Sequence record: MZ617141.1
Strand: one strand, 5' to 3'
DNA length: 410 bases
From: a phage
The notes beneath the pieces are model-generated. The model made no database searches, was not told the DNA's origin, and saw only the letters and a program-made list of their open reading frames with translations. Made by a program: the position numbers and the translations under genes. Shown in pieces: positions 1 through 410 of this stretch (position 1 is its first letter; each line of letters begins with the position of its first letter).

Positions 1-16
1 CCATTGATACATTGAT
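1..16 (+). repeat. Imperfect 8-bp direct tandem duplication (ccattgat / acattgat, 7 of 8 identical); candidate 8-nt insertion within the capsid coding sequence
   Basis: Seen in sequence: nt 1-8 ccattgat and nt 9-16 acattgat. Removing one unit gives ..cc att gat ggt ctg.. = (T)IDGL, which matches the T7 gp10 ...ITIDGLL... context in a single frame. The window edge prevents seeing whether the repeat extends upstream. Confidence 0.5.
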
Positions 17-410
17 GGTCTGCTGACTGCCGATGTGATGATTTTCGACATTGAAGACGCGATGAACCACTATGACGTGGCTGGCGAGTACTCCAACCAG
101 TTGGGTGAGGCTCTGGCTATCGCTGCTGATGGTGCGGTTCTGGCTGAAATGGCTCTCCTGTGTAACCTCCCGGCTGCATCCAACGAGAACATTGCCGGTC
201 TGGGCACTGCGTCAGTACTTGAAGTTGGTACTAAAGCAGACCTGAACACTCCGGCTAAGCTGGGTGAAGCAATCATCGGTCAACTGACCATTGCTCGCGC
301 GAAGCTGACCTCCAACTACGTTCCTGCTGGCGACCGTTACTTCTACACCACGCCGGACAACTACTCTGCAATCCTCGCGGCTCTCATGCCCAACGCCGCC
401 AACTACGCGA
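8..410 (+). CDS. Major capsid protein, T7 gp10A-like (HK97-fold capsid protein of T7-like podophages); internal fragment, continues past the 3' window edge; 5' continuity with the upstream part of the gene is broken by an in-frame TGA at nt 5-7
   Basis: Seen in sequence: the codon phase starting at nt 2 is open for 134 codons from nt 8 to nt 410 with no stop. Translation contains blocks IDGLLTADV, DIEDAMNHYDV, LGTA, NYVPA-DR-FY, YSAILAALMPNAANYA that I recognise from memory as T7 gene 10 capsid protein (about two-thirds identity overall, one single-residue gap). Codon usage is strongly biased (CTG, GCT, GGT, AAC, TAC, CGT), typical of a highly expressed phage structural gene. Not verified by database search. 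Confidence 0.9.

Follow-up and report, generated by a model that had tools for sequence, protein, structure and literature searches.

An apparent frameshifting duplication at the start of a 410-nt T7-like capsid gene sequence is very probably an artefact of an amplicon read

The window, by which we mean the whole stretch of DNA that was analysed (410 nt, with every feature described below on the + strand), carries part of a major capsid gene of the T7 type. Its genuine template segment, nt 10-383, comes from a Kayfunavirus (T7-like) gene and covers residues ~94-218 of a protein of ~349 amino acids, with codons counted from nt 11. Translated as far as nt 409, the sequence corresponds to residues ~94-226 of the T7-group major capsid protein. 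The Pfam family PF21703 (Gp10A-like) matched this translation at 160.1 bits against a cut-off of 27 (E = 1.2e-46), with residues 1-133 lying on profile positions 35-167. Solved capsid chains were also recovered (9vvq_I, E = 9.6e-80; 7y23_G, E = 4.7e-59; T7 gp10A, 2xvr_A, E = 1.3e-51), in alignments that span chain residues 94-229. At the nucleotide level, a megablast search against 50,697 phage records matched 232 of them, nearly all Kayfunavirus and allies. The best match was phage PhiNW-B1 at 97.5% identity, and the closest genomes overall stood at 96-97.5%.

Across this segment the gene closely follows its relatives. The protein is identical to that of phage PE3-1 at all 133 residues and to that of LM33_P1 at 130 of 133. 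Compared with PE3-1 and JSS1, the window has nine synonymous and no non-synonymous differences, and compared with Baskent_phicoli_1 it has six synonymous and again no non-synonymous differences. No further stop or indel was found in frame 2 past nt 5-7 anywhere in the window. By these comparisons, the interior is under purifying selection and the gene is intact there, and the fact that differences from the closest relatives are solely synonymous argues against decay. Intact genes have about 93 codons upstream of IDGLL, according to CDS coordinates and to the solved chains, in which the I is residue 94-96; this replaces the figure of ~110 codons proposed in an earlier note on this DNA. One interior base, a synonymous C at nt 298, is absent from 24 close relatives and present in 2 of 62 more distant ones; it probably reflects either an error in one read or a polymorphism that is real and private. 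The segment also contains a direct repeat, nt 104-118 (GGTGAGGCTCTGGCT) and nt 131-145 (GGTGCGGTTCTGGCT), whose copies are 87% identical, lie 27 nt apart, and specify two like peptides, GEALA and GAVLA; this is apparently either a short repeat within the capsid sequence or a product of chance.

The anomaly lies at the other side of nt 10. Read directly, the window starts CCATTGATACATTGATGGTCTGCTGAC..., and the repeat listing places CATTGAT in it exactly twice, at nt 2-8 and nt 10-16, with a spacing of 8 nt. Together these form a near-tandem 8-nt repeat, CATTGAT-A-CATTGAT (nt 2-16), in which the second copy (nt 10-16) is native and the first is private to the window. The repeat consists of 7 nt and one filler A (nt 9) and is not an exact tandem duplication; Tandem Repeats Finder, run on the window, reported no repeat. 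Frame 2, which is the capsid frame, opens with H, a stop, and YIDGLLTADVMIF... (also written as H, a stop, and YIDGLLTADVMIFDIEDAMNHYDV...), and stays open after nt 5-7 to the last codon. Counted over the whole window, frame 1 has 11 stops, frame 3 has seven, and frame 2 has one, at nt 5.

The earlier note had reported a TGA in every forward frame within the first 26 nt, and frame translation placed them as described, at nt 5-7 (the sole stop of frame 2), nt 13-15 (frame 1), and nt 24-26 (frame 3). We also found, as reported there, the capsid homology from nt 11 onward (IDGLL...), in-frame ATGs at nt 38-40 and 62-64, and a TID-like ATT GAT (I D) at nt 3-8 in frame 3, although the capsid homology of the frame upstream of the junction is read from 8 bases only. 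What did not hold was the treatment of the TGAs at nt 13-15 and 24-26 as parts of the lesion. Comparison with relatives showed both to be native off-frame stops that occur in every intact relative, and because nt 10-40 are common to 163 phage records, they are ordinary off-frame stops. Only the TGA at nt 5-7 is new and private to the window.

In relatives, the place of nt 1-9 is taken by AAGTGATTAC, directly past the site of a forward primer, T7-fw (see below), and the sequence is continuous at this point, reading ...GTGATTACCATTGATGGTCTG (in longer context, ...GAGAAAGTGATTACCATTGATGGTCTGCTG...). From nt 10 to nt 410, the window is collinear with these relatives and gap-free. The first nine bases, CCATTGATA, can be aligned in two ways. 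In a duplication alignment, nt 1-8 match the native CCATTGAT at 8 of 8 positions, which leaves the window with 8 extra bases. In a collinear, global alignment, native AAAGTGATTACC is set against CCATTGA-TA-C in the window, giving matches at six of nine bases, mismatches at nt 1, 2, and 4, and no gaps other than a T missing from TT and a C missing from CC. The megablast rows imply the same collinear placement of nt 1-9 as the global alignment.

No other sequence that we searched shares this start. The uninterrupted form, ACCATTGATGGTCTGCTGAC, was present in all 25 close loci fetched, and the junction CATTGATACATTGATGG was present in none of 84 fetched loci. Each of the 163 phage records with at least 99% identity to nt 10-40 begins its match at nt 10. 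Exact 24-27-mers across the junction had no match in IMG/VR, JGI metagenomes, or GTDB genomes, and exact strings from the interior and the 3' end had none in IMG/VR. None of six possible gene calls was found by exact look-up in a collection of 15 billion proteins, and a search for homologous proteins returned eight fragments, none with the junction. With the junction absent from the relatives and from IMG/VR, the JGI metagenomes, and the GTDB genomes, nt 1-9 are private to the window. Megablast against 5,426 complete E. coli genomes and 72,556 plasmids gave no match to the window, and there is therefore no hint of a chromosomal relic.

The 3' end of the window is primer-derived, not phage. By IUPAC matching, the reverse complement of primer T7-rev (5'-CGCGTAGTTGGCGGCRTTNGGCATNA-3') coincides exactly with nt 384-409: the complement, TNATGCCNAAYGCCGCCAACTACGCG, fits these positions with 0 mismatches, and 0 of 200 shuffles matched. 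Taq polymerase adds a non-templated 3' A, and the terminal extra A at nt 410, where all 62 aligned relatives have G, fits such an addition at the run-off end of an amplicon. The distribution of private bases follows the same boundary. Seven positions carry a base absent from 24 close relatives, six of which fall in nt 385-410 (enrichment over nt 10-384, Fisher p = 3e-7); five of these, nt 385, 391, 397, 400, and 409, are third codon positions and synonymous, and the sixth is nt 410. The nearest relatives differ from the window at 3-9 positions in the whole of nt 10-383 and at seven in nt 385-410, and over the last 33 nt the best relative is only 27/33 identical. Synonymous departures of the clamp from the native template are what incorporation of a CODEHOP primer would leave behind, and because six of the seven private positions lie in nt 385-410, we regard both ends of the 410-nt sequence as technical.

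Some smaller features of this end can be placed beside these results. Nt 406 also differs from close relatives, and there is an apparent codon change at nt 410; both lie in the primer-derived stretch. The primer-derived changes in nt 384-410 lower apparent identity, as in the 97.5% to PhiNW-B1. Short matches to the 3' end in the phage collection were best for capsid genes of Pseudomonas phages with a higher GC content. These suggested that a T7-like phage of higher GC might join the window at nt 385, at a boundary of recombination or mosaicism; we rejected this, as the maximum identity was 27/33 and the primer match explains the stretch fully. We also considered that a reverse primer containing inosine had placed a C at all four-fold sites of the last 26 nt, an idea that gave way to the exact CODEHOP clamp match.

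These primers belong to a published assay. Born et al. 2019 (Arch Virol 164:819, PMC6394723) used CODEHOP primers in a multiplex PCR of the major capsid protein (MCP), in which phages are typed directly from plaques. The primers T7-fw and T7-rev of its "T7-MCP" assay are given in Table 2 of PMC6394723, and the assay polymerase was KAPA Taq. The same paper states that PCR products "were sequenced," leaving the method and the sequencing primer unstated there, and mentions some nonspecific PCR products (PMC6394723). Partial MCP sequences were deposited as MK163343-MK163351, among them that of the T7-positive isolate L3 (MK163344), which was 100% amino-acid identical to LM33_P1 and showed no high-titre growth (PMC6394723). 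A second paper, PMC10938718, uses the same primers, and we rejected it as the source of the window since it reports no amplicon sequencing.

The start of the window falls where this assay would place it. In LM33_P1, Baskent_phicoli_1, PhiNW-B1, JSS1, and PE3-1, the T7-fw site reads GATAAGCGTAAAGGTATCAAACATAC[C/A]GAGA and is followed by AAGTGATTA and then by CCATTGATGG. The T7-fw 3' end lies 10 nt before the native CATTGATGG in all relatives and 9 nt before CCATTGATGG in these five. The part of the window from nt 10 onward thus starts 11 nt past this end, and nt 1 is within ~1 nt of it as predicted. The primers have five clamp mismatches to these templates, and the T7-fw sequence itself was not found in the window. 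A complete T7-rev beside a missing T7-fw agrees with one read started from T7-fw, probably the sequencing primer, or with trimming of that primer. The 410-nt window is a stand-alone T7-MCP amplicon read, not a piece of an assembled genome.

Given this setting, the anomaly at nt 1-9 is very probably a technical artefact of the start of an amplicon read and not a broken phage gene. The template would have been a PE3-1-like Kayfunavirus, taken from a plaque and amplified with T7-fw and T7-rev in the T7-MCP assay. The window would be one sequencing read, or a lightly edited deposit, that extends from just past T7-fw to the amplicon end, and because such a read runs to the amplicon end, its own 3' end would consist of the T7-rev complement and a Taq A. 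In dideoxy sequencing, no part of a read is less reliable than the 10-30 bases that come first after the primer. Nt 1-9 occupy the first positions after the forward primer, exactly where dideoxy calls are least trustworthy, and the nine called bases are most likely unreliable calls immediately 3' of that primer. Native AAGTGATTAC would have been called as CCATTGATA by three miscalls and by the reading of TT and CC as single bases. Two copies of TGAT are present natively at a distance of 10 nt (GTGATTACCATTGATGG), and with two bases dropped, they would come to lie 8 nt apart and so mimic a tandem duplication with an in-frame TGA.

Against miscalling, the duplication alignment is formally the more parsimonious for nt 1-8, with 8/8 matches compared to 6/9 and two gaps, and CAT at nt 2-4 would have to have arisen by chance, at about 1 in 64. 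Two other origins of the nine bases were tried and rejected. Forward-primer sequence or a misprimed product matched the primer 3' end at 6/9 by eye, with dissimilar sequence downstream and a poor register, and a copy of the adjacent sequence made by snap-back or inversion also reached 6/9 by eye, which is worse than the direct alignment.

The technical explanation would take another form if the extra 8 nt were physically present in the amplicon, having been made during PCR by Taq slippage or template switching close to the degenerate primer, or by a primer-related chimera. The 8/8 match of nt 1-8 to the adjacent native CCATTGAT, better than the collinear alignment, speaks for this, and degenerate CODEHOP oligos with five clamp mismatches favour mispriming, in an assay for which nonspecific products are mentioned (PMC6394723). 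Still, we consider a PCR-made insert unlikely. Direct sequencing shows the majority of molecules, among which a rare slippage product would not dominate, and the filler A at nt 9 means that there is no exact duplication to account for. Moreover, a window start 9 nt into the insert would then lack an obvious cause, whereas under miscalling the window begins at the primer end. We therefore infer that the nine bases are miscalls rather than a PCR-made rearrangement.

The headline of the earlier note was an 8-bp near-tandem duplication with a frameshift in an essential gene. If real, such a duplication in the phage capsid gene, as a defective variant, a decaying copy, or a selected mutant, would cut the protein after ~residue 95. 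Part of this is borne out, in that the repeat and the in-frame TGA are present in the sequence as given (CCATTGATACATTGATGG, with the junction in the form ACCATTGATACATTGATGG) and the alignment does yield 8 extra bases. As a property of a phage genome, however, the duplication is unsupported, since the bases belong to an amplicon, adjoin a primer, and are unshared, and since the closest relatives are intact without it, as in the 25 close loci noted above; an intact closest relative of this kind is what the earlier note had named as a refutation. The site lies no more than 10 nt from a primer site, in a read whose other end is also technical, and the junction occurs in no other sequence that we searched. 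To form plaques, a phage must have a functional major capsid protein (T7 gp10), and a phage deprived of two-thirds of its only major capsid protein could not have formed the plaque that served as template. The assay takes its templates from plaques (PMC6394723), which argues against a capsid cut at residue ~95.

If the window came from L3, the failure to propagate that isolate to high titre (PMC6394723) would be a point in favour of a real duplication. It could indeed be cited for a frameshift, and we do not count it as such evidence; the window fits PE3-1 better than LM33_P1, which makes the link to L3 uncertain. On balance, a real duplication is more doubtful still than an insert made in PCR. 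The three options in the earlier note fared accordingly: a sequencing or assembly artefact is supported, and neither a pseudogene nor an engineered or selected mutant is. For the pseudogene, the junction is not reproduced in relatives, there are no non-synonymous differences from PE3-1 and hence no sign of decay among the closest-relative differences, and no copy or chromosomal relic is known from the 5,426 E. coli genomes or the plasmids searched.

An isolate with a real 8-nt insertion at codon 94 might in principle still form plaques, by hopping between the GAT codons at a rate sufficient for capsid assembly or by complementation with wild type in a mixed population, and we regard this as highly improbable. 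The last and least credible reading is that of a functional gene whose frame is restored by recoding, either through a hop from GAT (nt 6-8) to the matched GAT (nt 14-16) or through a -1 shift. Short hops between matched codons do occur at low efficiency, with T4 gene 60 bypassing as the classic case, and the window does offer two matched GAT codons 8 nt apart. Yet ATT GAT ACA TTG ATG GTC TGC TGA contains no slippery heptamer of the form X XXY YYZ, no stop follows the take-off codon, and there is no significant structure (nt 1-60, z = -1.41, with 16 of 200 shuffles folding as well); the site is kept in none of more than 160 relatives, and an inefficient hop could not supply an abundant structural protein, so that recoding here is hardly conceivable.

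An ENA metagenome contig of 1,787 nt carries a Kayfunavirus-like capsid call of 214 aa that agrees with the N-terminal part and then ends in ...FYTTPDRKSVV in place of ...FYTTPDNYSAIL, which suggests a frameshift or an assembly error near residue 205. Partial T7-like capsid proteins on contigs of 281-605 nt are labelled at NCBI as hypothetical proteins of Cutibacterium acnes and Escherichia coli; these entries most likely reflect lytic-phage contamination of bacterial assemblies and are not bacterial genes.

The anomaly itself has little biological significance, and its value is one of data hygiene. Untrimmed primer and unreliable first bases in short amplicon deposits can mimic frameshifts, pseudogenes, and private substitutions. 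For this window, 27 bases should be trimmed from the 3' end and nine from the 5' end before any statement about identity, phylogeny, or gene integrity is made. More generally, when a stand-alone record is very short and an anomaly lies within ~30 nt of one of its ends, a primer or adapter check should come before any biological interpretation.

Three known systems offer a direct comparison. The first is gp10A, for which the closest genomes are those of the Escherichia phages PhiNW-B1, Baskent_phicoli_1, PE3-1, and JSS1 (genus Kayfunavirus). These relatives have an uninterrupted open reading frame, ...VITIDGLL... (ACCATTGATGG), and share neither the first nine nor the last 27 bases of the window. 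The second is the T7-MCP amplicon. The window resembles it in its 3' end, which is the T7-rev complement followed by a Taq A, in an interior that is the capsid segment between the primer sites, in a start at the predicted T7-fw 3' end, and in a phage type, Kayfunavirus on E. coli, that is also that of L3. It differs in that T7-fw is absent and in that its protein agrees with LM33_P1 at 130/133 residues and with PE3-1 at 133/133. The window may therefore be the amplicon of a different isolate obtained with these primers, or a shorter alignment may lie behind the published L3 figure.

The third comparison is with recoding, which is known both from the same gene family, in the -1 frameshift that yields T7 gp10B, and from another phage gene, in the bypass of T4 gene 60. 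Citrobacter phage CR44b is likewise annotated with a 10B minor capsid protein that results from a -1 frameshift. The T7 10A/10B shift is located close to codon 341, towards the 3' terminus of the gene, and not at codon 94. In contrast to that shift and to T4 gene 60, the window offers neither a slippery site nor a stop after take-off, and it shows no notable structure and no conservation at the point where its frame appears to break.
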